Shown here in pieces: positions 22,142-63,215 of a stretch of DNA of 64,000 nt. Both the position numbers and the translations under genes were made by a program. The notes below the pieces were generated by a model, which had not been told where the DNA came from, ran no database searches, and was given only the letters and a program-made list of their open reading frames with translations. The stretch is taken from positions 64,001-128,000 of the forward strand of contig CAXXSM010000076.1 in NCBI GenBank assembly GCA_963663405.2. Reading direction: 5' to 3'. The number at the start of each line of letters is the position of its first letter. Position 1 is the stretch's first letter. The DNA is from a bacterium. Its GTDB lineage: Bacteria; Hinthialibacterota; Hinthialibacteria; Hinthialibacterales; Hinthialibacteraceae.

Positions 22142-23104
22142 ATGAATAAGTTTTTTGTAATGATTCTATTGAGTTGTTTTTGTTTACCCGTCATGGCTCA
22201 GATTGAAGACTTTGATGAACAAACCGAAGGGCCTTGGTCGGATATCGATAACACCACGATTACCATTTTTAACGTGCCATCGATTACCTTAGATGGTGAG
22301 ATTTCCGCTGATGAATATGGTGGATTTGAAGGAATAGAAGTGATTCCCGTTGAGACAGGATGGGTTTTGAACTATGCCACCGAAAAGAATTGGGAAGGTC
22401 CGGATGATTCAAGTTTTACATTCTATGTGGCGTATGATGATACCTTTTTATATGTCGCTCTCGATGTGAAAGATGATGTGGTTCGTTCCAATGATGAAAA
22501 TGCGGCATTCTGGAAAGATGATGCGGTTGAAATTGTTTTTGGACCGGAAAATAACCGCTATGATATCAATACCGACGGATCGACAAACCTAGTAGGTGGT
22601 CACGTTTATTTCAACTGGGAAGGACGTTTTTCAGAATGGGATGAAGCATCCAGTCTTCCTCGCGATGCGGTTCGATTTGCCGCCGGTTTAGATTGGGCCT
22701 ATGGGGAAGACGCTGAAGTGTATGGCGTTGGTATTGAAACCGAAACCGGTTGGGCATTGGAAACCAGAATTCACAAAATGTGTTTCGAAGATGAAGACTT
22801 GGGAACATCTATGGTCGAAGGTGAAGTGTGGGATTTCAATGTGGGTCTCGATGATGATGATGGTGGCGATTTAGCGGTTCAGTATTGGTGGGCAAGCCGT
22901 GTTTTCGCAGATGGATTCAGCCCTGATAATGAATTTTTTGATTTGTTGTTGGATGAAGAAATTGAAACACAGGCTTATCTGGATCCGGAAAATGAAGCCG
23001 CTTTTTGGCCGTTGATCCTGGCTCAACCGTTGGGGTATGCATCTTGCGGAGAACTAATTTTTGGACCGCAATCAGCACCCGTGATCGAGTGGGCCGTGTA
23101 TTGA
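22142..23104 (+). CDS. Secreted CBM9/DOMON-like sugar-binding protein with C-terminal WxxY motif
   Basis: Signal peptide; ITLDG, YVAYDDTFLYVALDVKDD, W.DDAVEI, GW..E.RI, FNVGLDDDD; ends APVIEWAVY. Confidence 0.7.
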   Translation: MNKFFVMILLSCFCLPVMAQIEDFDEQTEGPWSDIDNTTITIFNVPSITLDGEISADEYGGFEGIEVIPVETGWVLNYATEKNWEGPDDSSFTFYVAYDDTFLYVALDVKDDVVRSNDENAAFWKDDAVEIVFGPENNRYDINTDGSTNLVGGHVYFNWEGRFSEWDEASSLPRDAVRFAAGLDWAYGEDAEVYGVGIETETGWALETRIHKMCFEDEDLGTSMVEGEVWDFNVGLDDDDGGDLAVQYWWASRVFADGFSPDNEFFDLLLDEEIETQAYLDPENEAAFWPLILAQPLGYASCGELIFGPQSAPVIEWAVY

Positions 23105-23134
23105 CATAATTTCGAGAGAGATATTTTTATTAAA

Positions 23135-23167
23135 AAAACGGCGGGTTGTCGAATGGCCCGCCGTTTT
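23135..23167 (+). terminator. Intrinsic terminator
   Basis: AAAACGGCGGG-loop-CCCGCCGTTTT downstream of the stop at 23104. Confidence 0.75.
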
Positions 23168-23181
23168 GCATGACTAGTTAC

Positions 23182-23417
23182 GTAGGGTGGGCTAAAAGCA
23201 CAGCACAGCCCACCCTAATCGATTATCAATTTATTCAATTTCGTAGAATAATCTAAAAGCGGTTTGTGTCTGTTTACAACATGATAAATTTATAATGCTA
23301 TAAAAGCCCATGCAATCAAACAATATACTGCGTAAAATAACTTACATTTACAACGGTCGATGAAGGCATTGCGGTTATTGTAAAGGTGGGCTACGCTTCG
23401 CTTTTAGCCCACCCTAC
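23182..23417. repeat. 236-bp REPIN-like element, copy 2
   Basis: Same length and colinear spacer as 21503-21738. Confidence 0.92.
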
Positions 23418-23421
23418 TTGG

Positions 23422-23523
23422 CTGCGTAAAATAACTTACATTTACAACGGTTGATGAAGGCGTTGCGGATATAGTGTTTAACAATGTAATGGCGCCCAAC
23501 GCTTCACTCTTAGCCTACCCTAC
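23422..23523. repeat. Partial third REPIN (right half)
   Basis: Repeats CTGCGTAAAATAACTTACATTTACAACGG...GATGAAGGC and ends in CTTAGCCTACCCTAC. Confidence 0.85.
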
Positions 23524-23527
23524 TCGA

Positions 23528-23923
23528 TTACTCGACTTTCAAGTTAATATCAAAACCATAAGCGTTTTTAAAATATTCAACATATTCTTCACCTGCTGCT
23601 GATAGTACTCCTCTATTCCACCATTCTTTATTATTTGATAAATGATAATGATTGTGAAGCAAGCGTTTAAACCTTCTATCAATGTCTTGAACCGTACTAA
23701 TAAATGAACTATGTTCCTGAAAGGTCATAAGTTCGGGATTTGTGAGAATTTCTTCCAATTCATTTCGCACATGAATTTCATTATTGTACTCGCTAACATC
23801 CCAACTATAGCCTTCTTCACAATCTTCAACAAATCCTAACCAGCAAGTTATAAGCTCGGGAAGGTCTCTTGATATATTCAAATTTTTGATGAACTTCCTT
23901 CTCGTATCAAAATAATTTGCCAT
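23528..23923 (-). CDS. Hypothetical protein, immunity-like
   Basis: AT-rich 131 aa with W..FV..CE.GY....EY.N...R and WW..G.L pattern; flanked by REPINs. Confidence 0.6.
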   Translation of the reverse strand: MANYFDTRRKFIKNLNISRDLPELITCWLGFVEDCEEGYSWDVSEYNNEIHVRNELEEILTNPELMTFQEHSSFISTVQDIDRRFKRLLHNHYHLSNNKEWWNRGVLSAAGEEYVEYFKNAYGFDINLKVE

Positions 23924-23974
23924 TTTTATCCCTTGCTAAAACTAATTATTAAAATATTCCAATACTATAGTTGC

Positions 23975-24168
23975 GTAAGGTGAAGAGCGCAGCGTAGGGC
24001 GCCATAATCAATTATCTATCGAATCAGTTTCGCAGGATGATCTAAAAACGAATTGCCGCCTGCTTGCAACATAACAAACAATATACATTACAGAACTTAC
24101 ATTTACAACGGTCGATGAAGGCGATGCGGATAGAGTAAAGGTGGGCTACGCTTTGCTCTTAGCCCTAC
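23975..24168. repeat. Diverged REPIN-like element, copy 4
   Basis: GTAAGGTGAAGAGCGCAGCGTAGGGCGCC...ACTTACATTTACAACGGTCGATGAAGGC...GGTGGGCTACGCTTTGCTCTTAGCCCTAC. Confidence 0.85.
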
Positions 24169-24175
24169 TCGTCTA

Positions 24176-25204
24176 TCAAAAAGGTATCTTTTTACATCGG
24201 ATAACATCTTTTTCAATCAGGGAACTCATCGTTTCATTTTGCATGCTGTTAATGTTTATTCTATTGGCGCCAATGTAATAAATCCCATGAAGTACCCCCT
24301 CGATCGATTTTAATCCAGCGACTTCATCACTTTTAAAGGTAATGGGTAATGATTGCTTAGTAAGAATTCCTTTCGCATGTTCAAAATAAGAATCATCAGG
24401 TTCTCTTATACCCGTCCAGAAACCTAATGCGCGATCTCCAGTTTGATCGAAATACATAATTGGATGTAAATATCCCACGTCGTTTGTGTTAATCCAATGA
24501 ATATTCCCTTTATATTGATTGCCCAATTGATCTGTAAAAATCGTTCGAACAAGTAACTCACCTAGTTCTTCGTCCGGTTGATCTATATAAGGCCGAACCG
24601 TTAAATCATCGTCGTCCTCACACGGAAAAAACCATACTGGATATTTCTCAAATTCTTCAGGGCCCAATTCATCTAATTGTTTATCATGGACCGATCGCTC
24701 AATCTTATCGAATGCTTCCGTTAATTCGGATCGAATAATTCTCTCGTAAGTAGTCCCGCCATCCTTCACACGTTTATATAGCGATCTGCACTCCAGCAAA
24801 TACGTTTTCATATTTTCAATATTGTAGGCGGTGTTGATCAGGAAAAAATAAGGAACGAGGGAATCACCCCGCTTAGCCAAAGCCTCACAATCTTCAAAAT
24901 CCTTGTCATAATAACGAAAACGTATATATCGCCTCCAAAAATCAATTTCCGTATCGTTTCCAAATCTCCATTCCGCTTCGTCCAGCAATTCAAACACTCG
25001 TTTTTCCGCTTTTGAAAGAAGTTTCTTATCAAGACGCATTCGAGCGGCGGTAACGTAATCTTGGGTGTAAAAATAGAGAGCGAACAGATTCAGGTAATCC
25101 TGACGGCCGGGATCACTCTCCAAAAAGAATTCTTCGTACGCTCGAATCGCATCCAGATAGCGTTCATCCCGGTCACATTGCAAAGCGATATCTTTTTTAT
25201 TCAT
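24176..25204 (-). CDS. Hypothetical two-domain protein
   Basis: Long ORF; GGAGGGG RBS before MNKKD (25204); helical N-half, then a KQLDEL.....YPVWFF domain. Confidence 0.6.
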   Translation of the reverse strand: MNKKDIALQCDRDERYLDAIRAYEEFFLESDPGRQDYLNLFALYFYTQDYVTAARMRLDKKLLSKAEKRVFELLDEAEWRFGNDTEIDFWRRYIRFRYYDKDFEDCEALAKRGDSLVPYFFLINTAYNIENMKTYLLECRSLYKRVKDGGTTYERIIRSELTEAFDKIERSVHDKQLDELGPEEFEKYPVWFFPCEDDDDLTVRPYIDQPDEELGELLVRTIFTDQLGNQYKGNIHWINTNDVGYLHPIMYFDQTGDRALGFWTGIREPDDSYFEHAKGILTKQSLPITFKSDEVAGLKSIEGVLHGIYYIGANRININSMQNETMSSLIEKDVIRCKKIPF

Positions 25205-25514
25205 TTTGGATACAACCCCTCCGTTGAATACCCGTTTTATTCCATCATACACTATGTTGGAAAGAATAACGTATAACCAGCGCTTTTTGTATGTGCTTTA
25301 AATAGTATATAAATGTTTTGTATGTGAGGAGGAGTGAACTGTCAATCCCAGTATCTAGTCCAGTAAATAAAAAAATCTTATCACGTCATAGCCAATATCA
25401 ACAAAAATAAGAGGAAAATTCTTCTGAATGCATAATCGAAAAAGCGGGGAAAGGGAACGAGTAACAAAATACATTGCTTTTCCCTTCCGCCTTCAGTCTT
25501 CAACCTTTTCCCCT

Positions 25515-25553
25515 AAAAACAAAAACGCCCCTGGAAAATTCCAAGGGCGTTTT
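25515..25553 (-). terminator. rRNA operon terminator
   Basis: Hairpin ACGCCC.TGGAA/TTCCA.GGGCGT followed by a U-tract on the minus strand just after 5S. Confidence 0.75.
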
Positions 25554-25562
25554 AAAGTTTAT

Positions 25563-25679
25563 TCCGGCGATGACCTACTCTCCCACAGCGTGTCCGCTGC
25601 AGTACCATCGGCGTGGAGAGGCTTAACTGCCGTGTTCGGGATGGGAACGGGTGTGACCCTCTCGCTATTGTCACCGGAA
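25563..25679 (-). rRNA. rrf: 5S rRNA
   Basis: Reverse complement contains CACACCCGTTCCCATCCCGAACACGGCAGTTAAG and GGGAGAGTAGGTCATCGCC. Confidence 0.97.
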
Positions 25680-25779
25680 ACTTGATTTCGGTATTAAGTT
25701 GTCCAATTTGATTCGTGTATAGTCAACCGTTTGCTTTGCGCGGATTGAAGGGTAATGCCGCGGTTCGCTAGTGAAGAGT

Positions 25780-28738
<2,959 letters not shown>

Positions 28739-28960
28739 GTTCACCTACGAACAGATGCAGCATTACCCATCAATCTACGCAAAGATTGATCTCTTTCTTA
28801 CTACTACTACGTGTTGCCACGTAGTGGGCGACTAATACGAATCAAATTGTCAAAGAGCATCGGTCTCTTCAAGACCGGTTGGACAGCCTGAGATCACTCT
28901 CAGGGGATCCTTCCACTCACGACTCATTTTCGTGAATGGAACGATCTCTATTTTAAGTTA

Positions 28961-29033
28961 TGGAGCTGACCGGGATCGAACCGGTGACCTTCGGCTTGCA
29001 AAGCCGACGTTCTCCCAGCTGAACTACAGCCCC
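28961..29033 (-). tRNA. tRNA-Ala(UGC), CCA not encoded
   Basis: GGGGCTGTAGTTCAGCTGGGAGAACGTCGGCTTTGCAAGCCGAAGGTCACCGGTTCGATCCCGGTCAGCTCCA. Confidence 0.96.
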
Positions 29034-29051
29034 GCCCATCGATTTAAAATC

Positions 29052-29127
29052 TGGGCCTGACAGGAGTTGAACCTGTGACCTTTCGCTTATCAGGCGAACG
29101 CTCTAACCGCAGCTGAGCTACAGGCCC
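29052..29127 (-). tRNA. tRNA-Ile(GAU), CCA not encoded
   Basis: GGGCCTGTAGCTCAGCTGCGGTTAGAGCGTTCGCCTGATAAGCGAAAGGTCACAGGTTCAACTCCTGTCAGGCCCA. Confidence 0.96.
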
Positions 29128-29353
29128 TCCATATCTTGTTTTAGTCAGAAAAAATGGACGCACAATCTCCACGGCGTCCAGGACGTTCTTTCTTAACCTA
29201 TGACAATCGAGTAGAACGAAACAAGCGTGTCTCTACCTAGGAGTAACCCATTCAGAAATCATGTCGCCAAACGCAGAGGCTTCGGACGTTCTCACACTGG
29301 AACGCCTCTTTTCCATCCTCCGCTGTCCAGCGATTTCTGAAGGGCATACAACT

Positions 29354-30922
<1,569 letters not shown>

Positions 30923-31171
30923 AAATTTAACATCCACTAACAATATGCTAGTGAATGGCTTATCCTGTCTTAACAAGCCACTTTTATTGTGGCGTTGTTC
31001 GAATCGGGGCCCCTTCAATCCTCTCGGATTAAAGAAGCTGATGTTACACGCTTTTGTGTTTGTCTACTCGATTGTCAAAGAACAAGAAAGGATTCGTCCT
31101 CTCTTTTTGCTTCAGAAACCAAACCCGCAACTTTGAGTGTTTATCGGCCTCTCCGTTGCGGGCAGATAATT

Positions 31172-31199
31172 ACTATACTCTTTATTTCTTTTTCGTCAA
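31172..31199 (-). promoter_or_regulatory. rrn promoter
   Basis: TTGACG-16 bp-TATAGT with upstream A-tracts (UP element-like) ahead of the 16S leader. Confidence 0.7.
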
Positions 31200-31647
31200 C
31201 CCGCTCTGCCCATTTTTTTTATTTTTTCTTGTCTTCATCGAACTTGGCAGAACTCCTTTTAGGATACGAAAGAGAACCTATCTTACTCAGTTTCTTTCGT
31301 TTGTTGACTCTCTCTGTCTCTGAGCACGAAGGAAAAGTATAGCCAGTAATTCAGGACCGCAAACCCCGCGGACACACTTTTTTAACTTTTTTTAAATCTT
31401 TGTAATTTCTTCTGAATTTAACCCTTATTTCGACCTTGTTTTAAGGAAAAAAAACACCACCGTATACTGTTTGATGATCGTATAACTATCTGATAAACAA
31501 TATGTTAAGATTCATTCTCCACTCTTTGTCACTGTGCTGGAGCCTTCGATACTTTTTTTCTTTAAAAAGACAAAAAAAAATATAAATTTCTATTTGGATT
31601 CCTTAATACCTGCAGATTAACAATATTATATATATATTAAATGAAGA

Positions 31648-31684
31648 GCGGGTAGCCAGAGCTAAGTTCTTCATCTGCCCTGGC
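31648..31684 (+). repeat. Palindromic repeat family C
   Basis: GCGGGTAGCCAGAGCTAAG...TCTGCCCTGGC. Confidence 0.65.
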
Positions 31685-31730
31685 GTTATATTAAGGAGAT
31701 TATACAAAGGGAGAAAAGGTCATGAACAGA

Positions 31731-31772
31731 AATCCTGAGTATTCTGTTAATCTTGGAAGTCCAGATTCAGAC
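31731..31772. repeat. Family E half-repeat (...AATC...GATTCAGAC)
   Basis: Homologous to 52489-52529 and to the right arm of 32592-32677. Confidence 0.65.
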
Positions 31773-31787
31773 AAATATCCATTCAAA

Positions 31788-32411
31788 CTAGGGCCCAAAA
31801 CGGTGAAGATCCCCCCGGCTCTGAATACCATTGGATGGCTCGTAAACCAAGAATATATTGGGGCCGGCGATCGTAACCATGGCGCCGGATTCCATGCTCA
31901 ATTGCCCGCTGTCTCCATCCATGATCTGATCGGGGCCGCGGGAAATCACCCACCATTCATACGCCCCCGGCATCACAACGCCTTTCCATTCCTTCATCGC
32001 GCCAGCCCGGAAGAATTTCTGCCGGGGGCCGTCTACTAAAGTCGGATCGAAATACCCATACCGCATGCCGGTCTGCCCATCTTGATCGATATACACCTGG
32101 AAGGGATCGTCCACCGATTCCGGATTGGTCAAATAAGAGGTCGGTGTGCTCAGCGCGTTAAAATATCGTGGACTCGTGTGCCCTCCCCATAAGTTATAAG
32201 GAGGATAACCGTTTTGATCCAAATGATACGATTCAAGCGCCGTCGCCAGCGTCCGGAAATCACTCTCCACCCGCGCCACTTTCGCCCGGACCTGCGCGTT
32301 AAGAAAGTTCGGAACCGCGATCGCCGCTAAGATTCCGATAATGGCGACAACGATGAGAAGCTCGATCAATGTAAATCCCTCCCACCGGGATTCCTGTATC
32401 ATACCGTCCAT
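31788..32411 (-). CDS. Prepilin-type N-methylation (pilin/GspG-like) protein 1
   Basis: G|FTLIELLIVVAIIGILAAIAVPNF class III signal; SRGPD; YEPSNGIQSRGD. Confidence 0.92.
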   Translation of the reverse strand: MDGMIQESRWEGFTLIELLIVVAIIGILAAIAVPNFLNAQVRAKVARVESDFRTLATALESYHLDQNGYPPYNLWGGHTSPRYFNALSTPTSYLTNPESVDDPFQVYIDQDGQTGMRYGYFDPTLVDGPRQKFFRAGAMKEWKGVVMPGAYEWWVISRGPDQIMDGDSGQLSMESGAMVTIAGPNIFLVYEPSNGIQSRGDLHRFGP

Positions 32412-38385: not shown

Positions 38386-38416
38386 AACAAAGTCTATTGA
38401 TAATCCTAATATAATA

Positions 38417-38882: not shown

Positions 38883-39027
38883 CGTATTCCTCGATGAAGT
38901 TGTTTTACCAAAAACCGTGATTTAATTTGATTTTAAGGTAACATTCAATAAATGTAGATTGAATCCTGCATGAATTGCGCTAGATTTGAAAACGGATTAC
39001 TATATTTTTCAAAACTTAAAGGAGAGC

Positions 39028-40038
39028 ATGATGAAAACAATCTTTCGATTAGGTGTTCTTGTCTTACTTATTCCCATCGTAACAAGCGCGTGGAGTAATC
39101 CAAGTGATATTGTCTGGACGGACGATGTGGAGAATAATCCCGTCATTGGCAGTCCAGGTTTTGGTGACAACCGGGCTTATTATGGTCAGGTTATCTTCGA
39201 TCCGATTGCGAACATCTGGCGCGCATGGTATGACTCCAGCAGTGGTTACGATGTTGGCTACGCTGAATCAACGGATTCAGAGGGAATCAACTGGACGAAC
39301 TACGCGCCGGTTACTGGTTTTACTACTTCGCGTCAAAGCAAAGCGGTTGTTCTGCAAATTGAAGATTCTCTCTTTAGAATGTGGTACATGGCTGACGAGC
39401 GCGACCAGGGATACAGCGTCTACACCGCCGTGTCAAGTGATGGAATCAATTGGGGAGACGATCAAATCATTGAAGGGATCGTGTACGACAACCTTGGTTC
39501 TTCGCAATGGGGACCCGTTGAACGTATCGCGGTGACACAGTTGGAAGATGGAACATTCACAGCGTATTGCCGCTGCGAAGAACCCTTTCTCGACGCCGCT
39601 CTGGAGTGGTTTGATCAAGGTAAAAAATTGTTTCGCTATACCTCAGAAGATGGAATCAACTGGACCTGGGGCGGGTATACCGGCGTCAATGAAATCGAAG
39701 GATTCGAAAGTTTGGAATTTTCCTCCGTCGTGAAACATCCAGACATTGAGGATGTTTGGTACGCCTGGGGAAGCATGGCGAACAGCGAGCGTCCGATTTA
39801 TTCATTTGTTTCAACGGACGATGGCTTGACCTTTGAATTGGATGAAGATCCCGTCGCCAATGTCGGCGATTATCAAACACAGCCCTACAACCAAAACCGC
39901 AATTTCCACGCAAGCGTCACCTACTTAGGAAACGGCGAATGGGTCATGTTCCGGTCGACCGCGGATCCCAAAACCACATCTCGCGCGACGGGTATTGAAG
40001 AAATCTCCAGTCCAATAGATCATTGGTATCTCTATTGA
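39028..40038 (+). CDS. Secreted five-bladed beta-propeller (GH32/43/130-like) with C-terminal WxxY motif
   Basis: Signal peptide; repeated S.DGINW boxes, FRMWY, NPVI; ends SSPIDHWYLY; AAGGAG RBS. Confidence 0.7.
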   Translation: MMKTIFRLGVLVLLIPIVTSAWSNPSDIVWTDDVENNPVIGSPGFGDNRAYYGQVIFDPIANIWRAWYDSSSGYDVGYAESTDSEGINWTNYAPVTGFTTSRQSKAVVLQIEDSLFRMWYMADERDQGYSVYTAVSSDGINWGDDQIIEGIVYDNLGSSQWGPVERIAVTQLEDGTFTAYCRCEEPFLDAALEWFDQGKKLFRYTSEDGINWTWGGYTGVNEIEGFESLEFSSVVKHPDIEDVWYAWGSMANSERPIYSFVSTDDGLTFELDEDPVANVGDYQTQPYNQNRNFHASVTYLGNGEWVMFRSTADPKTTSRATGIEEISSPIDHWYLY

Positions 40039-44769: not shown

Positions 44770-45336
44770 ATGCGGTATTTCCAAAAAGGTTTCACACTGA
44801 TTGAATTGCTCATTGTCGTCGCCATCATTGGAATTCTCGCGGCGATCGCCGTGCCGAATTTTCTGAACGCCCAGATGCGGGCCAAAATCACCCGCGTAAA
44901 AGCCGATTTCCGGGCGATCGACACATCGTTCCAGAGTTATATGCTCGATAATAACCACTATCCGCCCGATGTCGGTGGGCCTTGCGAGGATGTGCTCGCG
45001 TATTATCGGCTTACGACACCGATCGCGTATATTTCAAATCTCAGCGTTTTCAAGGATTATTTTACAAACGAAAATCCGGAAGGCGCGATCGGCGCGGCTT
45101 GCGAGTTTAACTATTATGATTATGGAATGGTTCCCTACATCACCGAATCTGGCGTGGGTTACGTTGTCATCAGTTTTGGCCCGGACCGGGATCTGGATAT
45201 GGGCTGGAACACAAATTCAATGGACGCGTTGAAACGAAATGACGCCCCCAATTTATCGTTCTTATACGATTCATCGAACGGCCTTATTTCATCCGGCGAC
45301 CTGATCTTAACCGGTCTCGGCATCCACAATAAATAA
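44770..45336 (+). CDS. Prepilin-type N-methylation protein 2
   Basis: KG|FTLIELL...PNFLNAQ; LTTPIAY; SFGPD; YDSSNGLISSGD. Confidence 0.92.
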   Translation: MRYFQKGFTLIELLIVVAIIGILAAIAVPNFLNAQMRAKITRVKADFRAIDTSFQSYMLDNNHYPPDVGGPCEDVLAYYRLTTPIAYISNLSVFKDYFTNENPEGAIGAACEFNYYDYGMVPYITESGVGYVVISFGPDRDLDMGWNTNSMDALKRNDAPNLSFLYDSSNGLISSGDLILTGLGIHNK

Positions 45337-52529: not shown

Positions 52530-52543
52530 AAAAAAAAATCCAT

Positions 52544-54114: not shown

Positions 54115-54137
54115 GAATCGTTTTATATTGATGGGAA

Positions 54138-55058
54138 TCAGGCTTTTGCGAGAGCCTTTTGGAGTTTTTCGATATAACGGGGAACCGCTTCCATTGGTTC
54201 TTCATTCGATTCGTATTCGAGAGCGACATAGCCCCGGTAACCAGCCTCCCCGATGATATCGACGATCCGGTCGAAATCGGCTTCGTATTTTTGATTGGAA
54301 TCGGACCACATTTCGACTTTTATCTGTACGTTGACAGCATAAGGAGCCGCTTTTTCGATCTCTTTGTAGGGATCGCTGGTGTGGAAATTGCCTGTGTCGA
54401 GATTGACGCCGAACCATTCGGAATCGACTTCATCGACGATCGCGAGCAGACCTTCGGCGTCCGATACGATCCCACCGTGGTTTTCAAGCGCGAGGATAAT
54501 CCCTTTCGTTCCGGCGTATTCACAGGCTTCTTGGATGGTGTCGATGGAATATTGCCGGGCCTGCCGTTCATTGGCGCCGTCACGCACTCTTCCCGCGAAA
54601 ATCCGGATGCAGGGGGCGCCGAAAATGGCCGCGTAATCGACCCACTCGCGGCAGTATTCAAGTTGCTTATCCCGCTGCGGACCGGGAGGGTAGGTGAATT
54701 CATTGCCGATCGCAGTGGCGGAAATATCCAGACCGAGCATGAACGCTCTCCGTTTGTACCGGATGAAGTACTCTTCCAAAGGATATTTGGGGAAGTAATA
54801 CGATGTCGGTTCCGCCGCATCCAATCCCATTTGGGCGCATTCATATAGAAATCCATCCATATTCATGGTGTAGGGATCGGGATCGTTGAGGTACTTGCGG
54901 AAGGAATATGCGGAGAGACTCGCTTTCATTTTGGGATCGACTCCACGGATGATGGGAGGGATCGCCTGCGTAACCGTTGGGTGAGCCGCTAAGGCCGCCA
55001 CACCGGAGAGCGCGAGTAAGCTTTGTTTAATAAATTGCCGCCGGTTTGGATCTATCAT
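54138..55058 (-). CDS. Tat-exported sugar phosphate isomerase/epimerase (xylose isomerase-like TIM barrel)
   Basis: NRRQFI leader; YSFR, ALENHGG, NLDTGNF, LEYE. Confidence 0.88.
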   Translation of the reverse strand: MIDPNRRQFIKQSLLALSGVAALAAHPTVTQAIPPIIRGVDPKMKASLSAYSFRKYLNDPDPYTMNMDGFLYECAQMGLDAAEPTSYYFPKYPLEEYFIRYKRRAFMLGLDISATAIGNEFTYPPGPQRDKQLEYCREWVDYAAIFGAPCIRIFAGRVRDGANERQARQYSIDTIQEACEYAGTKGIILALENHGGIVSDAEGLLAIVDEVDSEWFGVNLDTGNFHTSDPYKEIEKAAPYAVNVQIKVEMWSDSNQKYEADFDRIVDIIGEAGYRGYVALEYESNEEPMEAVPRYIEKLQKALAKA

Positions 55059-55551
55059 CGTTTTTTTCCTTTCCTGCTTAAATTCAACGCTCCAAAATTA
55101 TAATGAATAAATGAATCCGTTGAAGATGGTTTGTTCCACCATATGTCATTCCAACCAAGAAGTCACCCGGTAAGATTCAGAAATAGTCTTGTTTTTCCGA
55201 ATTTGTTCCACTCAAGAAAATACCATAGAATCCTTGCGATATCCAAGCCCAAATAGCAAAAAAGGATGGGAAAAATAAAACACCGTTTCATTTCGGTTGA
55301 TGGCTGCTATGAACAGATATATCTTGTGAATTATAGATACGATACGGAGACAAAAAGGCCCTGCAAAGCGTGACTTAAGCATAACTCATCTATGGAAAGT
55401 ACGTCATCATCTATCTCAATGAGTTTCTATCTAAAATTTTAACTTTTTGCCGTTTCTTAATAGAACAATAAATCCTTTTCGTTTATTGACGATAATAATA
55501 CGATAGGCCTCGTTCTATCTATGAACGATCGATTTCGAATGAGAACCAATT

Positions 55552-56838
55552 ATGCCACAGTCCGAACATTTAGAACGCTTAAAAAGAGATATCGACTCCT
55601 GGAATCAATGGAGAGAGGAGAACCTGGGTGTTCTCCCCGATCTCAGTTGGGCGGATCTGAGTAAGATGGACTTGAGTGAAGCGAACTTGATTGTGGCGGA
55701 CCTGAGTCATGCGGATTTACGGGAAGTGAATCTGAGTCATGGAGATCTCCGGCAGGCGAATTTAACGGGAACGGACCTGAGCGGGGCGGATCTCTTCCGG
55801 GCGAACATCAGCGATACGGAAATGATTGAAGCGGACCTGAGCCGGGCGGACCTGCGGGAGGCCAATTTGAGCGGGGCGGATCTGCGTTGGGCCAATCTGC
55901 GGGGAGCGGAGCTGAGCGGCGCCAATTTTGATCGTGTGAAATTCCGAAAAGTCGATCTGAGTGGAGCGTATCTTTTTCAGGCGAATTTTGTCGGCGCCGA
56001 TCTCCGGGACGCGGATCTGAATGACGTTAATTTATTGAAGGCGAATCTTAGCGGGGCGGATCTAAGTGGCGCGAACCTGTGCGGGGCGAATCTGAGTGAG
56101 GCGAATCTGAGCGGCGCGCAGCTGGATGGGGCGGATCTGATGTTTACCAATTTTACGAGAACGACGCTGACAAAGGCGAATTTTAAGCGGGCGAAATTGT
56201 TCCGTACCATTTTCGCCGACGTGAATCTCAGCGAAGCCATTCACCTGGAAAGCGTCGAACATTGTTTTCCTTCCACCGTCGGTGTCGATACATTTTTCCA
56301 GTCTAAGGGGAAAATCCCTGACGCGTTTCTCCGGGGAGCGGGTGTGCCGGAAAATCTGATTGTTTATAAAAACCCATTAACTCATGACGCGAATCATTAT
56401 TATTCCTGTTATATCAGCCATAGTGATAAGGATAAGGATTTCAGCGAAATGCTGTTACTGGCGCTGCGGAAAGAAGGGATTCGCGCCTGGCGGTTCCCGG
56501 AAGAGATCAAGATGACGGAATCGATCCGGTGCGAAATCGGCCGCAGCATCGACCGCCGGGATATTTTGCTTTTTATTTGTTCCGAAGAATCTCTAACAAG
56601 CGCCTGGGCGATGGAAGAAATCGAACACGCGTTGATGAGAGAAGAGACGGAAAACATACAAATCCTCTTCCCGGTCACTATCGATCCATTTCTCGAATAT
56701 TGGCAAGCGCCTTTACAGAAAGACCTTCTTAACCGAATCATCGTAAATTTCAGTGGTTGGTCTCAAAACTCACAGATTTTATATCAGCGGATTCCTCGAT
56801 TGATCTCTGCATTGAAAAAGAAGAAGAATTCTTTCTAA
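55552..56838 (+). CDS. Pentapeptide-repeat protein with C-terminal TIR domain
   Basis: WNQWR cap, A[DN]LSG repeats, then YISHSDKD...S.ESLTSAWAMEEI...LFPV.ID. Confidence 0.88.
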   Translation: MPQSEHLERLKRDIDSWNQWREENLGVLPDLSWADLSKMDLSEANLIVADLSHADLREVNLSHGDLRQANLTGTDLSGADLFRANISDTEMIEADLSRADLREANLSGADLRWANLRGAELSGANFDRVKFRKVDLSGAYLFQANFVGADLRDADLNDVNLLKANLSGADLSGANLCGANLSEANLSGAQLDGADLMFTNFTRTTLTKANFKRAKLFRTIFADVNLSEAIHLESVEHCFPSTVGVDTFFQSKGKIPDAFLRGAGVPENLIVYKNPLTHDANHYYSCYISHSDKDKDFSEMLLLALRKEGIRAWRFPEEIKMTESIRCEIGRSIDRRDILLFICSEESLTSAWAMEEIEHALMREETENIQILFPVTIDPFLEYWQAPLQKDLLNRIIVNFSGWSQNSQILYQRIPRLISALKKKKNSF

Positions 56839-56871
56839 AAGAGTGGAGAGGATTTCAAGCCCGTGATTGCT

Positions 56872-58752
56872 CTACTTCACTCGTGGAGCGAAGATCTCAG
56901 CGAAACGATCCGGTTTGTCTTCATTGCGGACGATATCCACGTATCGCGGTCCTCCATCGTATTGGATGGTAACAGTTTCGAACACTTCATCTTTTAAAAG
57001 GAGCAGTTCAACCGATCGTGTTGTTGGGCTGTCCGCGATCGCGTCTTTCAGGCGGTTTTCGCTGAATTTTTTTCCATTTACACCGATGATTTTGACGCTG
57101 TCGTAAAGTCCCGCTTGATCCGCTGGGCCGCCTGGGCTGATTTCCGTGATCTCACCAGTAGTTGAGACGCGCATACCTAATGATGTGAGAGAATGATCTT
57201 TATCATAATCTGTTGGTTTAGGTGAATATTCAATCCGGTAGCCTAGACGATCGAGAACAGTCAGGGGGAGTTCATCATGCCATCCGCGCACGCGGTCTTC
57301 GATCAGCGCTTCCCAATCGTATGGAAGCAGCTCATTTAGTATTTCAACGATGTCTTTTTCTTCATAACCCATGAGCATTTGGTTTTTATCGTACCGGCCA
57401 AGAAACCGCTGGATAAAATCGTCCAGGCAGAGTTTCGAATCGCTTTCTTCCTGGAGAATGGTGTCGATTTCATACCAGAGGAGCGCGCCTTCAAAATAGT
57501 AGTCTTGTGGCCGGTATAATCTCCGCCAATGCTCACTTCCCCGGCGGCGCAGATAGGAAGATGACGCGGTGTCTTCTAGATTGATGGAACGGCGGCCTTT
57601 CTGCAGCATCAAAGAGACAATAGTCTTGCCCACGCCTACCCATTCATCCCGCAGGCCGCCTTCGAAGGATGTTCGATCCTTGGTTTCAAACAGGCCGGAG
57701 CGGGTGGTTAGAACAACGCCGATGTATTGATCCAATCCTTCATATACCCATAGCAATCGAAGGTCTTTCGGTACTTGATAATCAGGAGTGGCCATCCCTT
57801 GGGGACGGTGGTATTTACCGCACCAGCGATGCCCGTATTCGTGCGTAATGAGGTGGCCGGTGACGCGCAGCTGGTCTTCTTCCAGGCCGTTGGCGCCAAC
57901 AACGTTCAGACTTGATCGCATATGCTCTAATCCGATAAACGGCAGGTTGTCACTTAACATCAGCAGGAAATGGTAGTCATAATCGTGTCGCTTACCGAAC
58001 ATCACCATCGCTTCCGCAACCATCTTGCGGATTTTATCCAACGTTTTTTCATCGGGGTGAAGCCTTGGTTTCGATTCCGCTAAGAGATGGAGAAAGTGGG
58101 GCGTTCCACCGTCTGGCGTTACATCGATAAAGCGATACCACTTACCGCAGACCAACGGGCTGTCGACGAGTTCACGGATAGACACTGGATTAAACTGAAT
58201 GGTACCTTCGTCCTCTTTTTGAGCGGTTAATGAGGAGCCCCATTTCCATTCTTTGGGTAATTGAAGAGTGAGATTGACATTGATATCGCTGATATCGTAT
58301 CCCTTTGGATAGAGGAGGCAGGTGTTCCATGCGATGATTCCAAGCTGGGATGTGCCATGCGTGTCGACACCCAGCGAATATGCTGGCGCCGCTTGGTTGC
58401 AGATGTAGGTTGTATCGGCCTGAATCCGGATTACGCCGTTTGGAATATCGATCAGGAAATGAAATACGTCATGGGGATCGCGGGTCCAGGATAGGCGTTT
58501 TCCATCTTCTGTGGAGAAGAAAATTTCGGCCAGATTTTGAATCGGGCTTTTGGGACCGTGCACACCTTCAACCCATTTGGGGTAATAGAGATCGAAGACA
58601 GGGCCGCTGACATGATAGGTGGAAGACGCTTTGAGCAAACCACGGGGTAGATCCCTCGCGTCCACATCCAGCGTCATTGTCGCCGCCGCGCTGGAGGAGA
58701 CGGCCGCTGTGATTAGAAAGATGGCTAATAAGAGACATTTCTGATTCCGCAT
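56872..58752 (-). CDS. M61 family glycyl aminopeptidase with PDZ domain
   Basis: GLEH, HEYGHRW, LWVYEG, YY.G, C-terminal GPA..AGL PDZ; signal peptide from MRNQK (RBS GGAAAGGA). Confidence 0.9.
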   Translation of the reverse strand: MRNQKCLLLAIFLITAAVSSSAAATMTLDVDARDLPRGLLKASSTYHVSGPVFDLYYPKWVEGVHGPKSPIQNLAEIFFSTEDGKRLSWTRDPHDVFHFLIDIPNGVIRIQADTTYICNQAAPAYSLGVDTHGTSQLGIIAWNTCLLYPKGYDISDINVNLTLQLPKEWKWGSSLTAQKEDEGTIQFNPVSIRELVDSPLVCGKWYRFIDVTPDGGTPHFLHLLAESKPRLHPDEKTLDKIRKMVAEAMVMFGKRHDYDYHFLLMLSDNLPFIGLEHMRSSLNVVGANGLEEDQLRVTGHLITHEYGHRWCGKYHRPQGMATPDYQVPKDLRLLWVYEGLDQYIGVVLTTRSGLFETKDRTSFEGGLRDEWVGVGKTIVSLMLQKGRRSINLEDTASSSYLRRRGSEHWRRLYRPQDYYFEGALLWYEIDTILQEESDSKLCLDDFIQRFLGRYDKNQMLMGYEEKDIVEILNELLPYDWEALIEDRVRGWHDELPLTVLDRLGYRIEYSPKPTDYDKDHSLTSLGMRVSTTGEITEISPGGPADQAGLYDSVKIIGVNGKKFSENRLKDAIADSPTTRSVELLLLKDEVFETVTIQYDGGPRYVDIVRNEDKPDRFAEIFAPRVK

Positions 58753-58790
58753 TGTGTAGATCCTTTCCATGACAGAATTGTAAATGGATT

Positions 58791-59543
58791 CTAATGGATT
58801 GGCCACGAATTACCATACCATTGGCGCACGATGGCTTCGCTGGTGTCAAATAGCTGACAGATTAAAGTGGGATTGAGAACGTCCTGTGGATTGCCCTGCG
58901 CGAGGATACGGCCTTGATAAAGGGCGGCCACCTGTGTGGCGATGCGCCGCGCGGAATGGAGATCGTGGGAGACGTATAGTATGAGTTTTCCGGTTTTGTA
59001 TAACTTGACAAGGATGTCTTCGAAAATGATCTGATGCTTCAGATCGAGGAAAACTGTTGGTTCGTCCAGGAATATTACGGGGGTGTTCTGGACAATGACT
59101 TGCGCCAAATAGACCCGCTGCCGTTCGCCTCCGCTCAAAGTTGAGAGTTTCCGGTTTCTAAATTCCTCTATATGACATAATTCAAGCGCGTACTCAAGGC
59201 GCTGTTTTGAAGTTTGCGGTGACTCGATGTGGTTCCAGGGATGGGTCGCGAGTGAGACGAATTCAGCCACGCGGTATCCTTGGACAGAAGGCATGGATTG
59301 GGGTAAATAGGCGATGATCCGGGCGCGTTCCATGCGGGGGAGACTTAATAAATCATACTCCTTGTGATAAAGCCGATCCGCATGGGTGGGGATTAATCCA
59401 GCGGCGGCGCGGAGGAACGTGCTTTTTCCCGCGCCGTTGGGTCCAACGATCGCGAAGACACCGGCGTCCGGGATGTCGAGAGAGACAGAATCGAGGATCG
59501 TTTTGTTGGCGATGGAAACGGAAAGGTTTTGGATCGATAGCAT
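58791..59543 (-). CDS. Iron-chelate/cobalamin-type ABC ATP-binding protein
   Basis: GPNGAGKST, AYLPQ, LSGGERQRV, LDEPT.FLD..HQ, SHDL. Confidence 0.88.
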   Translation of the reverse strand: MLSIQNLSVSIANKTILDSVSLDIPDAGVFAIVGPNGAGKSTFLRAAAGLIPTHADRLYHKEYDLLSLPRMERARIIAYLPQSMPSVQGYRVAEFVSLATHPWNHIESPQTSKQRLEYALELCHIEEFRNRKLSTLSGGERQRVYLAQVIVQNTPVIFLDEPTVFLDLKHQIIFEDILVKLYKTGKLILYVSHDLHSARRIATQVAALYQGRILAQGNPQDVLNPTLICQLFDTSEAIVRQWYGNSWPIH

Positions 59544-59835
59544 TCAATATATCCTTTTTTGAACGGGGGCGCGCCGTATGAATAACAAGCAATAAGAGAA
59601 CAATCACATAAGAGATTGCGTCAATGGGTGACACGCAGAATTTCCCATTGACTGAAATTATAATTTAAGAGGACTGAATTCCAAAAGACTCACAATGAAT
59701 GAAGGATGGGGAATCGATTGATTTCATGTTGTGAGTGAAATGTGGTTTTTCATTGGTTCCATGCAGTGTGATCCATGATACAATGTTCTGTGGAATAATC
59801 GATTTAATTTGTTTGTGCAAGGGAGATGTGAAATA

Positions 59836-60486
59836 ATGAATATGCGAGTTAGGAATCACTGGTTGGGTTTTACGTTGATTGAATTGCTGATTGTTGTCGC
59901 GATTATCGGGATTTTGGCGGCGATCGCCGTACCCAATTTTCTCAATGCGCAGATCCGCGCGAAGATTTCCCGTACGAAAAGCGATGTGCGGATGTTGGAT
60001 GACCAAGCCGTTATCCGAAATATGGATTGTGGATTATGGTTGATTGATGGCAACGATACTGGACAAGCTGATCATTGCGAGTTTGAAGCCGGTTATAATT
60101 TCTGGGGCAAGACACCGGCGGAAGCGCAGGTCGATACCCAAGGGGCGCTTGGGGATAATTTCTTTAACGGACAGATTTACCAACAATTAACAACCCCCGT
60201 CAATTACATCAATTCGATCCCGGTGGATGTGTTCACCAAGGGATTGTTTTACGGTTATGAGGATCGCGGGTGTTCTAATGCGCCCATTGGCACGCATTAT
60301 CTCTTCTTTGCCTGCGGGCCGGATGGGGATACATTTGATTGGTACATTGGCCGTCATGCGACTCCATACGTTTCATCGAACGGGCTGACGTCCAATGGAG
60401 ATGTCTGGCGGTCCCGTAAACTGCGTATCCGGCCGGACGAAGGCGACCTGTATCAACAAGAGATATTCCAAGATTACTGGGAGTGA
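59836..60486 (+). CDS. Prepilin-type N-methylation protein 4
   Basis: LG|FTLIELL; LTTPVNY; ACGPDG; YVSSNGLTSNGD; GGGAG RBS before 59836. Confidence 0.92.
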   Translation: MNMRVRNHWLGFTLIELLIVVAIIGILAAIAVPNFLNAQIRAKISRTKSDVRMLDDQAVIRNMDCGLWLIDGNDTGQADHCEFEAGYNFWGKTPAEAQVDTQGALGDNFFNGQIYQQLTTPVNYINSIPVDVFTKGLFYGYEDRGCSNAPIGTHYLFFACGPDGDTFDWYIGRHATPYVSSNGLTSNGDVWRSRKLRIRPDEGDLYQQEIFQDYWE

Positions 60487-60646
60487 TTTTCTTAAACGGG
60501 CAATTATTTATGCGTATTCATTCCGTTTTATGTAACGGATTCTTTTCCCGCGTTATATTTCACGGCTGACAAAGATTTCATACGTCGAGAAGGCGCGTTA
60601 CTCTATTCCTCTGGATAGATATCTTGCTGACGCAGGAGACTGATGA

Positions 60647-60852
60647 ATGAGAAATTGCGTGATACTGAATCCTGCGCGTATTCTTCTGTTCTAAAACCTA
60701 CACGTATTCTTCAAGGTTTTTTCTTCTACTTATTGTTATATCTCACTACGTGGACGCCTTTTGCGCCGAATACCCAGTGAAACAAGATGGAACGGGTGAT
60801 TTCACAACGGTTCAAGCCGCGCTGGACGCTGTGTTATCTAACGACATTGTGT
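60647..60852 (+). pseudogene. Decayed 5' fragment of the 61746-63215 gene
   Basis: MRNCVILNP..stop, small internal duplication, frameshifted EYPVKQDGTGDFTTVQAALDA. Confidence 0.85.
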
Positions 60853-60931
60853 TCATGCGGCACAAATCACGATACTATATTTGTTATAGCAAAATCGATT
60901 TGATTTGTCGGCGTTAGGGAGAGATGGAATC

Positions 60932-61585
60932 GTGAATCAGCGTTTTCGGTATTACCGATGCGGTTTTACGTTGATTGAATTGCTGATCGTTGTAGCGATT
61001 ATTGGGATTCTGGCGGGGATCGCCGTGCCCAATTTTCTCAATGCGCAAATCCGCGCGAAAGTGACTCGTACGAAATGCGATATGCGCATGTTGGACGATC
61101 AAGCCGTTATCCGCCATATAGATACCGGCTTATGGTTGATTGATGGGAATGACGCAGGACAAGCCGAACATTGCGAGTTTGAAGAGGGATTTCATGACTG
61201 GGGCTTGGTACCCGATGAATTATATATTGATACACAGGGGGCGGCGCTCGGGAATGAATTCTTCAATGGGCAGATTTATCAGCGATTAACTACCCCCGTC
61301 AACTACATTAATTCAATCCCGGCGGATGTGTTCACCAGGGGAATGTTTTATGGGTATTTTGACCATGGGTGTTCGAATGCGCCTAAAGGCGCGTATTATC
61401 TTTTCTTCGCTTGTGGGCCGGATGGGGATCTATTTGATTGGTTCATTAACCGTCCTGCGATTCCGTATGTTTCCTCGAATGGGCTGACGTCCAATGGAGA
61501 TGTCTGGCGGTCCCGTAAACTGCGTATTTATTCAGACGAAGGCGCCTTGCACAACGAAGCGCTATTCCAGGATTACTGGGAGTGA
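60932..61585 (+). CDS. Prepilin-type N-methylation protein 5 (tandem paralog of protein 4)
   Basis: GTG start with GGGAGAG RBS; CG|FTLIELL; colinear with 59836-60486, both ending FQDYWE. Confidence 0.92.
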   Translation: MNQRFRYYRCGFTLIELLIVVAIIGILAGIAVPNFLNAQIRAKVTRTKCDMRMLDDQAVIRHIDTGLWLIDGNDAGQAEHCEFEEGFHDWGLVPDELYIDTQGAALGNEFFNGQIYQRLTTPVNYINSIPADVFTRGMFYGYFDHGCSNAPKGAYYLFFACGPDGDLFDWFINRPAIPYVSSNGLTSNGDVWRSRKLRIYSDEGALHNEALFQDYWE

Positions 61586-61745
61586 TTTTCTTAAACGGGC
61601 AATTGTTTATACGCATTCATTCCATTTCCTGCATCAGATTCTTTTACCGCTATATATCTCATGGTTTAAGAAGGTTTCATTCTTTGAGAAGGCGTATTAC
61701 TCTATTTCTCTGGATTGATATCTTACTGACGCAGGAGATTGATGA

Positions 61746-63215
61746 ATGAGAAATTGCGCGATACTGAATCCTACACGTATTCTTCAAGGTTCTTTTATCC
61801 TATTCATTGTTCTATTTCATTTTGTGGATGCTTCTTGTATTGAATACACAGTGAAGCAAGATGGGACGGGTGATTTCACAACGGTTCAAGAGGCGCTGGA
61901 CGCCGCGTCTTCTGGCGATGTTGTGACCGTGTCCGGCGGTTCATATGTTGAAGATGTGAGTATTGGACATTTCAACGTTCCTTCATTGAAAAAAGATAAT
62001 ATTACTTTCCGCGCCGCCGAGGGAGAAACCGTCGAAATTATTGCGGCCAACACCAAAAACCGGGCGGGTGGATTGACACAAGCTGGATTCGATCCAGGCC
62101 CCGCCGACCGCGCCGGCTTTGTTTTGAATGGAGATAACGCTCTCATTGAAGGAATCAGATTCATCCAACCTTCCGCTGAGTTGAATAATATCGATCAAGC
62201 CTTGGCGGTTATCGTTGGCAGTTCCAATGTCACATTCCGGAATTGTGAAATTGTGGGACCTTCCCCTGATGACGGCCCCGCCTCGAATACGGAAGGGGAT
62301 TTGGTTGGATTGGCCATTTCCCCGATCGACGTATTCGCGCTGAGTCAAGGAACGGGTGTACCTCCAACGAATCTGACTATGGAAAACTGCCGGTTCCATC
62401 ATGTTGAATTCGGATTCGGTACCGAAGATATGTTGAAAACGGGTTTGCCGCCTGAGACAACCTTGCGGAATTGTGAATTTTATTACAACCGCAATGGAGT
62501 TGAAGTGAATGATGGAACTGTCCATCTGTTTGATTGTAATATCCATGACAATAGCGTCGGCGTTCAGGCCGCTGATGACCAGGCGTTTCTCACCAATTGT
62601 GTCATTTGGAATAATGGAAGACATGGCGTGCAGCTGGATGAAGGGGAGATTGATGCGGTTGAATCCGCTCAGAATCCAACCGTAGTTATCGATCAGTGTG
62701 AAATCAGAGACAATGGCCTGGATAATGAAGGCGCCGGAATCCAGATGGAACTCGGTACGCTGACAGTGAAAAACACGGTTCTCTCGAATAACGTGAACGG
62801 CCAAGTGTTTATCTCTTCCTCCAATAAAGGAGACTCGACGGTAACGATCGATCATTGTGATCTCTATGAATCGATTATGGGATTCGCTATCGCGACTACG
62901 GAAGATCTGATTAGTTTAGCTGATATCACGATTACTAATTCCATTCTTGTTGATGAAATCGGCGTCATGAATAATATGGGAGTGTTAGCGGAATTTACCG
63001 TAGAGTATTGTGATTTCTTCGTGACTGACGAGCCATTTGTTGGCGCATCCATCGTTTCGAATACTATTCTAAACATAGCGCCTGGATACGTTGATGCGGA
63101 GAGTGGAGATTTTTACCTTACGCCGGATTCCCCACTGACTACGGCCGCGCAGGATGGGGAGTACATTGGATCGAAAGGCGTTAAAACGCCAGTGGTGAAT
63201 TGGATGGTTCACTAA
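61746..63215 (+). CDS. Secreted right-handed beta-helix (pectin lyase-like) protein with C-terminal WxxH motif
   Basis: VKQDGTGDFTTVQEALDAA cap, T..NC.I..N repeats, GDFYL...SP; ends TPVVNWMVH. Confidence 0.82.
   Translation: MRNCAILNPTRILQGSFILFIVLFHFVDASCIEYTVKQDGTGDFTTVQEALDAASSGDVVTVSGGSYVEDVSIGHFNVPSLKKDNITFRAAEGETVEIIAANTKNRAGGLTQAGFDPGPADRAGFVLNGDNALIEGIRFIQPSAELNNIDQALAVIVGSSNVTFRNCEIVGPSPDDGPASNTEGDLVGLAISPIDVFALSQGTGVPPTNLTMENCRFHHVEFGFGTEDMLKTGLPPETTLRNCEFYYNRNGVEVNDGTVHLFDCNIHDNSVGVQAADDQAFLTNCVIWNNGRHGVQLDEGEIDAVESAQNPTVVIDQCEIRDNGLDNEGAGIQMELGTLTVKNTVLSNNVNGQVFISSSNKGDSTVTIDHCDLYESIMGFAIATTEDLISLADITITNSILVDEIGVMNNMGVLAEFTVEYCDFFVTDEPFVGASIVSNTILNIAPGYVDAESGDFYLTPDSPLTTAAQDGEYIGSKGVKTPVVNWMVH

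Follow-up and report, generated by a model that had tools for sequence, protein, structure and literature searches.

Several described systems rely on one short C-terminal motif that is common to many unrelated secreted proteins, among them PEP-CTERM/exosortase, LPXTG/sortase, GlyGly-CTERM/rhombosortase, and MYXO-CTERM. A C-terminal end of another kind is reported by Ellison et al. (PNAS 2026; PMC13533445), in which the last ~10 residues of the PilC/PilY1 adhesins complete the PilK/GspK beta-sheet in trans; according to the same paper, GspK provides the equivalent strand itself in type II secretion systems (T2SS). Here we describe a nine-residue C-terminal tail carried by three exported proteins that are encoded in a stretch of 64,000 nucleotides (the window), namely positions 64,001–128,000 of contig CAXXSM010000076.1 (C76) in a Hinthialibacterota assembly (G000) of 8.44 Mb, 170 contigs, and 82% completeness. 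In tripartite signals such as PEP-CTERM, the motif is followed by a membrane helix and a basic cluster, whereas the proteins described here end at the motif.

All three carriers are encoded on the forward strand, and in each of them the tail lies immediately 5' of the stop codon. The first is a CBM9-like exported protein of 320 amino acids (22142–23104; Pfam CBM9_1, E 1.6e-9), the translation of which ends in ...QSAPVIEWAVY (tail APVIEWAVY, 23075–23101). The second is a beta-propeller glycosidase-like exported protein (38986–40038, where the open reading frame (ORF) begins with TTG at 38986 and the likely start is ATG at 39028), ending in ...ISSPIDHWYLY (tail SPIDHWYLY, 40009–40035). It had no match to a Pfam family, and its AlphaFold model, used as a Foldseek query, matched GH159, GH130, GH43, and sialidase propellers with TM scores of 0.56–0.63. 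The third is a right-handed beta-helix (pectinesterase-like) exported protein (61746–63215; Pfam Beta_helix, 9.5e-18, and Pectinesterase, 3.3e-7), which ends in ...VKTPVVNWMVH (tail TPVVNWMVH, 63186–63212). The original prediction had attributed to these three proteins a signal peptide, different folds, and the shared terminal motif P-[VI]-x-x-W-x-[LV]-[YH]. The translations agree with the claimed ends, signal peptides are visible in all three, and the folds do differ, as judged by Pfam for the CBM9 and beta-helix proteins and by AlphaFold and Foldseek for the propeller. With the 10-residue profile described below, these three proteins were the only carriers in the window. A cytoplasmic ABC ATPase (58791–59543, reverse strand) ends in ...NSWPIH and fits W-x-[LIVM]-[YFH], but the remainder of the motif is absent, and its end is therefore read as a chance look-alike.

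All ORFs of at least 80 amino acids in the genome (n = 18,962) were listed and their C-terminal ends compared. The pattern of the original prediction, searched as P-[VI]-x-x-W-x-[LVIM]-[YHFW], occurred 47 times anywhere in these ORFs, and 31 of the occurrences were exactly C-terminal, compared with 0.25 expected; the enrichment over internal positions was more than 100-fold. This excludes chance genome-wide. The motif itself proved to be wider than first described, proline at -8 being just one of the three residues S, P, and A found there. In total, 157 ORFs ended in W-x-[LVIMF]-[YHFW]. Their residue counts were T 72, V 39, and S 23 at -9; V 108 and I 24 at -7; D 41, N 32, and E 16 at -5; L 95, V 29, and I 20 at -2; and Y 93, F 32, and H 30 at -1, with W at -4 and with S, P, or A at -8, while positions -16 to -10 contained little information. 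Tryptophan at -4 was present in 232 of the 5,045 ORFs of at least 200 amino acids, compared with 43–118 at each of the other nine terminal positions. The resulting consensus is a strictly C-terminal motif of nine residues, [T/S/V]-x-V-x-[D/N]-W-x-[L/V/I]-[Y/F/H]-stop, with W(-4) and V(-7) as the most conserved residues.

A 10-residue profile, iterated to convergence and with its threshold set on random internal windows, matched 186 of the 12,670 ORFs of at least 100 amino acids, where about 2.5 false positives were expected; W was replaced by Y, F, or A in 18 of the 186 matches. The last residue of the 140 ORFs ending in [VI]-x-x-W-x-[LIVM]-x was Y in 74, F in 26, H in 26, R in 6, Q in 3, and another residue in 5, and 15 further ORFs contained the full motif followed by one extra residue. 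At the DNA level, a strict back-translated pattern for V-x-x-W-x-L-Y-stop had 46 matches in the genome compared with 6 for the reversed control. The codons for V, L, Y, and stop varied freely among these 46 matches, which indicates that the constraint acts on the protein.

The carriers are diverse. After removal of the last 12 residues, the 177 tail genes left in a non-overlapping gene set fell into 74 single-linkage BLAST clusters, the largest with 30, 16, 12, and 11 members and 46 of them singletons. Twenty cluster representatives, drawn largest first, were run against Pfam; they included LRR, LTD with CotH, WD40-like propellers (two), Laminin_G_3 (two), Kelch, NHL, FG-GAP (two), and beta-helix (two) proteins, and eight of the 20 had no Pfam family. 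The tail is carried by 74 unrelated clusters or families of beta-rich binding or sugar-degrading proteins. These folds, together with the fact that each protein ends at the motif, agree with the earlier claim that the signal has no helix and does not sit on beta-barrels. No marked composition bias was seen in the 20 residues upstream of the tail.

The predicted tie to exported proteins was confirmed by an enrichment check, in which signal peptides were called by a crude rule on genes of at least 150 amino acids. A signal-peptide-like N-terminus was found in 133 of the 176 tail genes (76%) compared with 1,439 of 5,099 others (28%), with an odds ratio of 7.9 and p 3.5e-37; many of the 43 tail genes that failed the rule visibly have signal peptides or are fragments. 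The tail occurs on ~3% of genes of this size and on ~11% of soluble proteins with a signal-peptide-like N-terminus. Membrane helices were rare among the tail genes (6 of 176 vs. 747 of 5,099 others), and the tail proteins were more acidic, with a net charge per residue of -0.09 compared with -0.01. A lipobox-like pattern was present in two of the 176 tail genes, one of them convincing. The only Tat-like carrier found was a sulfatase (G000:C57:42834-44459; L178, reverse strand; Pfam Sulfatase, E 1.8e-47) with the tail ...AMDVSPWLVY, the signal peptide of which has a twin-arginine motif as judged by eye; no Tat model matched it at E <=0.01. This sulfatase suggests that folded Tat cargo can carry the tail. 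The statement that no Tat or lipoprotein product ends in this way thus holds within the window, but genome-wide it meets one Tat-like sulfatase and one lipobox protein.

Structural models were consistent with a tail that lies outside the fold. The AlphaFold model of the CBM9 protein, based on a 38-row alignment, had a mean pLDDT of 88; its last strand spans residues 303–310, and residues 311–320 have no secondary structure and a mean pLDDT of 55, falling below 50 for 316–320. In the model of the propeller (336-residue form; mean pLDDT 85), the last strand spans residues 316–324 and is followed by no secondary structure, with a mean pLDDT of 59 in the last block. In both models, the tail is predicted to be a free, flexible, disordered overhang.

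The novelty of the tail relative to existing models also held. NCBIfam returned no match for the three full-length window proteins, nor did the C-terminal 40 residues of seven tail proteins give one at E values up to 10, and Pfam showed no sorting-signal model in the three window proteins and the 20 representatives. A literature search on the phylum, on C-terminal sorting signals, and on T2SS signals, which did not extend to supplementary files, found no description of the tail, and the terms "C-terminal" and "secretion" do not occur in the main text of the paper naming the phylum (PMC9324843).

Distribution was studied in 35 genomes of the phylum, representing one class and six families. The strict DNA pattern had matches in all of them, 756 in total compared with 107 for the control. 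Tail density was 4.6 per Mb in the family of the window, 3.1 in the distant family f6, ~1.7 in families f2 and f3, and near background in the single genomes of families f4 and f5. Outgroup genomes from other phyla were reached through GroEL relatives with identity of at most 67%. Five of them (Roseibacillus, Pontiella, a Hydrogenedentales bacterium, a Planctomycetota bacterium, and a Lentisphaerales bacterium) had 0–1 matches each, and in 61 Hydrogenedentota genomes the strict pattern was not in excess of the control. As far as can be judged from these genomes, the tail is specific to one phylum, since it is enriched across most of Hinthialibacterota and not in the 66 outgroup genomes; the lineage specificity that had been proposed is in line with this result. 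A relaxed form of the DNA pattern was too noisy for profiling tail-poor genomes.

The tail was also retained by individual orthologues. For the CBM9 protein, 29 close relatives were compared, and every one has W-x-[LIVM]-x at its end, with an extra residue after it in one case and with Q, K, or R as the last residue in six. Among 19 loci of the beta-helix protein in other genomes, 12 end exactly in W-x-[LIVM]-x, four have 1–2 extra residues, one is broken by N's and has a tail-bearing fragment, and two are without the tail in the chosen ORF; V(-7) and W(-4) are kept in these orthologues, and the last residue varies (H, Q, R, Y). The tail was likewise retained in close relatives of the propeller protein, two of which have an extra E. 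In G033, a genome of the distant family f6, an ORF ending in the motif was present at 28 of 30 fetched loci, with signal peptides where the N-terminus was inside the locus. Taken across the phylum, sequence conservation indicates that the tail is maintained by selection at the protein level. The closest named homologue of the CBM9 protein belongs to Candidatus Hinthialibacter antarcticus; further homologues carry the label Omnitrophota, a group within which OLB16 was formerly classed according to PMC9324843.

More distant homologues in other organisms end differently. Among 12 distant CBM9 homologues without the tail, seven end, as judged by eye, in PEP-x, then a hydrophobic helix, and then a cluster of Arg and Lys residues. 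One of the PEP-CTERM-like ends is annotated with Pfam PF07589, and two of the distant homologues are annotated with dockerin PF00404. Three others have Cys-rich tails, one has no recognizable end signal, and one is a partial sequence. A distant relative of the beta-helix protein (P0053) has the C-terminal domain (CTD) of the type IX secretion system (T9SS), PF18962, on record, and a distant relative of the propeller (P0187) has a T9SS-like end by eye.

These observations bear on the claim of the original prediction that the tail is a sorting or anchoring signal. We consider it probable, at roughly 60%, that the tail serves proteins already outside the cytoplasm as an address or docking tag peculiar to this lineage, and that it is read after export. 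The main ground for this reading is that, in relatives, the site of the tail is occupied by PEP-CTERM, dockerin, or T9SS signals; in addition, tail and lipid anchor hardly ever occur together, and one carrier is a Tat-type enzyme, which would be folded when crossing the inner membrane. Once a tail protein had been exported by the Sec or Tat route and was folded, an envelope receptor might bind the exposed tail as an extended strand and might either transfer the protein in its folded state through the outer membrane or hold it at the cell surface, a job that PEP-CTERM, dockerin, or T9SS domains would perform in the relatives from other phyla. A helix-less tag of nine residues on ~3% of the proteome would represent a new sorting route for folded exported proteins of diderms, and the secretome of an uncultured polymer-degrading phylum would become readable from sequence alone.

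The same homologues would also be expected if a dedicated processing enzyme, acting on many substrates as sortase, exosortase, or T9SS PorU do, cleaved in or before the tail and attached the protein covalently to an envelope lipid or glycan, and we regard this explanation as unlikely but worth keeping in view. Hundreds of cargoes with one motif fit a single reader, the conserved T-x-V upstream of D-W-x-L-Y could be a cleavage site, and the near absence of the tail from lipoproteins is expected if lipid anchor and tail are alternatives. However, in all described signals of such a type the substrate is held at the membrane by a helix and a basic end, whereas here the protein stops at the motif, and no candidate enzyme gene was enriched beside tail genes. 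Exosortase PF09721 had no match in the genome, which is 82% complete, and matched one control genome; a regex scan of the genome for PEP-CTERM-like ends gave one doubtful ORF of 81 amino acids.

If the tail is an address tag, the next question is by what it is read. The original prediction had pointed to a T2SS- or pilin-type machine in view of the expansion of pilins. By motif, the genome encodes 135 GspG-like pilin-like proteins with a median length of 206 amino acids, and counts for single genomes of the phylum run from 28 to 206. The N-terminal 60 residues are the sole part of these proteins that matches any model, and their consensus LTTPVAY...DPF...GPD...SNG..S.GDI contains what we take to be the hallmarks of the T2SS major pseudopilin GspG. 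None of the 135 carries the tail. Four GspG-like pseudopilin paralogues, each with a match to the TIGR02532 prepilin N-terminal domain and the GspG N-terminus, are encoded in the window, one on the reverse strand (31788–32411) and three on the forward strand (44770–45336, 59809–60486, and 60905–61585). The last two are upstream of the beta-helix gene on the same strand, the nearer one at 161 nt, and the product of 59809–60486 may possibly represent a partner class.

Across the genome, the prepilin-type family was the only family that stood out beside tail genes, with 34 of its 118 members within two genes of one (hypergeometric p 4e-9). A pilin was the immediate neighbor of 20 of the 176 tail genes (11.4%) compared with 4.6% of other soluble secreted-protein genes (odds ratio 2.6, p 0.001); the value among genes without a signal peptide was 3.3%. 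Thirteen of the 20 neighbor pairs were on the same strand. The cross-genome proximity test counted pilins at most 1.5 kb from the tail stop, and such pilins were found at 16 of 177 tail genes in G000 (expected 8.5) and at 6 of 28 in G033 (expected 1.1). Other enriched neighbor families were considered as readers and rejected, as they were small co-duplicated cassettes.

A number of results weigh against a reader of this type, and some against the address tag more generally. The proximity of pilins was not significant in G003 (3 of 14 tail genes, expected 1.1) or in G023 (1 of 11, expected 0.7). A pilin lay within 1.5 kb at none of the 19 beta-helix orthologue loci and near one of the 24 loci of CBM9 relatives, so that for two of the three window proteins the adjacency is unconserved. 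Pilin and tail densities per Mb did not co-vary (rho 0.15, p 0.40; -0.10 in the main family), and pilin counts track genome size, not tail density. G001 has GspK and 28 pilin matches, with a tail count at background. Pilin expansions have been described in other phyla, yet the outgroups searched, the pilins of which were not counted, show no tail. The pilins beside tail genes are GspG-like with Glu5; the PilY1 strand is taken up by pilins of another type, PilK/GspK, which lack this Glu. No reader was identified for the tail, and a phylogenetic profile for a reader gene is without power, since G001 is the sole clearly tail-poor genome. In addition, R or Q at -1 (9 of 140) and the 15 one-residue extensions indicate that recognition of an exact terminal carboxylate is not strict. 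Because the adjacency is enriched 2–3-fold yet unconserved, the link between tails and pilins is real but modest and without fixed pairing; the link to the T2SS is weakly supported.

In favor of the T2SS link, the genome has three T2SS operons, all of which include a GspK that in two cases matches Pfam T2SSK. GspK was matched in 35 of the 35 phylum genomes. Among 28 inspected GspK C-termini, 23 end in ...I-R-Y-W-K-V-[IL]-R or close variants, an end that shares the spacing [IV]-x-x-W-x-[VL] with the tail and has one extra residue. The GspK of one operon (G000:C133:30627-31919; L145:6628-7920, - strand; orthologues L148-L175) ends in ...P-E-I-R-Y-W-K-V-[IL]-R across three families, and in family f6 the terminus is ...F-L-Y-Y-R-T-[LM]-R. 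The idea that the tail is a copy of the GspK terminal strand was rejected, as the profile score of -5.3 falls only in the top 1.3% of random windows; it is a hint only and counts against a T2SS reader. A further observation concerns a minor-pilin operon with a GspK-like protein of 1,114 amino acids (G000:C143:51011-54355; L147:7012-10356, - strand). The N-terminus of this protein is GspK-like but lacks Glu5, and no Pfam family matches it. Its gene is located after three minor-pilin-like genes and before the gene of a 1,072-residue protein; the cluster may encode a tip complex in which the apical subunit is a giant one.

By analogy with PilC/PilY1 and PilK/GspK, we tentatively propose that the reader of the address tag might be the T2SS or type IV filament apparatus, acting by beta-strand addition to a pilin-like subunit; we see this as a possible rather than an expected outcome. 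A stronger form, in which the tail is a universal plug-in strand and more than 150 enzymes and lectins donate their last nine residues to a T2SS or type IV filament subunit, is doubtful. A complex prediction that paired an in-window GspG-like pilin (residues 46–226) and the C-terminal 50 residues of the beta-helix protein gave no answer (score 0.00) and carries no weight either way. If the reader is the T2SS or pilus apparatus, the tail would bear on the long-open question of cargo recognition and would offer a short portable tag for testing. The plug-in strand, if true, would be the first linear transferable T2SS signal, or a modular mounting of varied cargo on pilus-like fibers.

A membrane helix is retained in the GspG-like pilins, the sole family clearly enriched beside tail genes, which would also suit periplasmic retention, with the tail docking sugar-degrading and binding proteins on membrane-anchored pilin-like proteins or on another periplasmic receptor so that they act within the periplasm on imported polymers. 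The specialization of the phylum in complex and sulfated polysaccharides, which is described in PMC9324843 (2022), is compatible with this explanation. However, the weaknesses of every pilin link apply to it, and the homologues elsewhere have surface or secretion signals, not retention signals; we therefore consider retention quite unlikely.

PDZ domains bind free hydrophobic or aromatic C-termini, and the tail might accordingly be a site for a periplasmic PDZ protease or sensor (HtrA/DegS-like or a C-terminal processing protease), that is, a tag for turnover, maturation, or stress. The genome encodes about 10 PDZ proteins, one of which adjoins a tail gene. However, it is hard to rationalize why ~180 secreted proteins that are constitutive should bear a tag for degradation or stress, maintained by selection throughout the phylum. 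Conservation peaks at -4 and -7 and not at the end, where R or Q and an extension by one residue can occur. A GspC-type PDZ reader beside a secretin was also rejected, as none of the ~10 PDZ genes is on a contig with any of the eight secretin matches, and no PDZ gene is near a secretin. These points make a PDZ ligand very unlikely.

A further explanation is that the tail mimics the C-terminal beta-signal of outer membrane proteins (OMPs), is read by BamA/BamD, and leaves soluble proteins exposed at the surface. The tail resembles the OMP beta-signal and the DegS-activating YxF termini in being strictly C-terminal with a mostly aromatic last residue (126 of 140), and the envelope is that of a diderm, with two Omp85 proteins (BamA), two TonB-dependent receptors, and eight secretin matches over the cut-off. 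The carriers are not barrels, however, but soluble sandwich, propeller, and helix folds, and in the tail W(-4) and V(-7) are the most conserved residues, whereas the four barrel proteins of the genome end in ...SATF, ...TARF, ...GQSF, and ...GQAF, without W(-4) or V(-7). A beta-signal mimic is thus highly improbable. A tail without function, arising by chance, from a shared ancestral C-terminal domain, or from a DNA repeat, would be in keeping with some tail genes being recent paralogues (the clusters of 30, 16, 12, and 11), but it is already refuted by the 74 clusters and 46 singletons that persist after tail removal, by conservation that ends ten residues from the C-terminus, by the varying synonymous codons, and by the more than 100-fold enrichment over internal positions.

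Three other features of the window were recorded. A complete rRNA operon occupies 25562–30922 on the reverse strand, with 16S at 29360–30922, two tRNAs at 28961–29127, 23S at 25777–28739, and 5S at 25562–25678, which explains a stretch of the window without long ORFs. The GroEL ORF (3941–5428, forward strand) starts at position 36 of the Cpn60 profile, which means either a truncated gene or a start codon farther upstream in a different frame. Two adjacent small ORFs of 119 and 114 amino acids (11288–11996, forward strand) resemble a toxin-antitoxin-type pair by size and arrangement only.

WxL domains have a W-x-L motif near the C-terminus of Gram-positive surface proteins and mediate non-covalent binding to the cell wall; they are whole domains with two motifs, and no Pfam WxL match was found in the 23 tail proteins scanned. 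Type I secretion signals direct one-step export of proteins without an N-terminal signal peptide, whereas 133 of 176 carriers are signal-peptide-like. Like the tail, the T9SS CTD is a signal at the C-terminus of folded, soluble proteins that diderm bacteria export through Sec, among them adhesins and enzymes for sugar degradation. It is, however, a folded domain of 70–100 residues (PF18962/TIGR04183), whereas the tail consists of 9–10 conserved, disordered residues with no Pfam or NCBIfam match. The T9SS families PF14349 and PF18962, which would point to machinery such as SprA and to its cargo, had no match in the genome, but they had none in any control genome either and so do not speak for an absence of the T9SS.

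PilC/PilY1, as well as MshQ and CpaL, resemble the tail proteins in that about 10 extreme C-terminal residues of a signal-peptide-exported protein, without a membrane helix, form a free strand. The position at the end of an exported protein is the same, and the strand role is only predicted for the tail. Genes of type IV filaments and of the T2SS are numerous in the host, and there is a modest enrichment of tail genes beside pilins. The systems differ in scale, with one adhesin per pilus system compared with ~180 cargo proteins per genome here, and in gene arrangement, since the tail genes are dispersed and outside minor-pilin operons, with 20 of 177 adjoining a GspG-like pilin. The neighboring pilins are GspG-like and not PilK-like, and their binding of the tail is only putative. 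The PilY1 propeller PF05567 had no match in the genome, but the control genomes were silent too, so that this does not demonstrate its absence.

PEP-CTERM proteins, finally, are defined by the PEP motif, a hydrophobic helix, and an Arg-rich end, whereas tail proteins stop after their motif. A C-terminal sorting tag shared by many proteins is thus known in principle, and the tail of Hinthialibacterota is distinct in having nine residues, no helix, no basic end, and no known enzyme.

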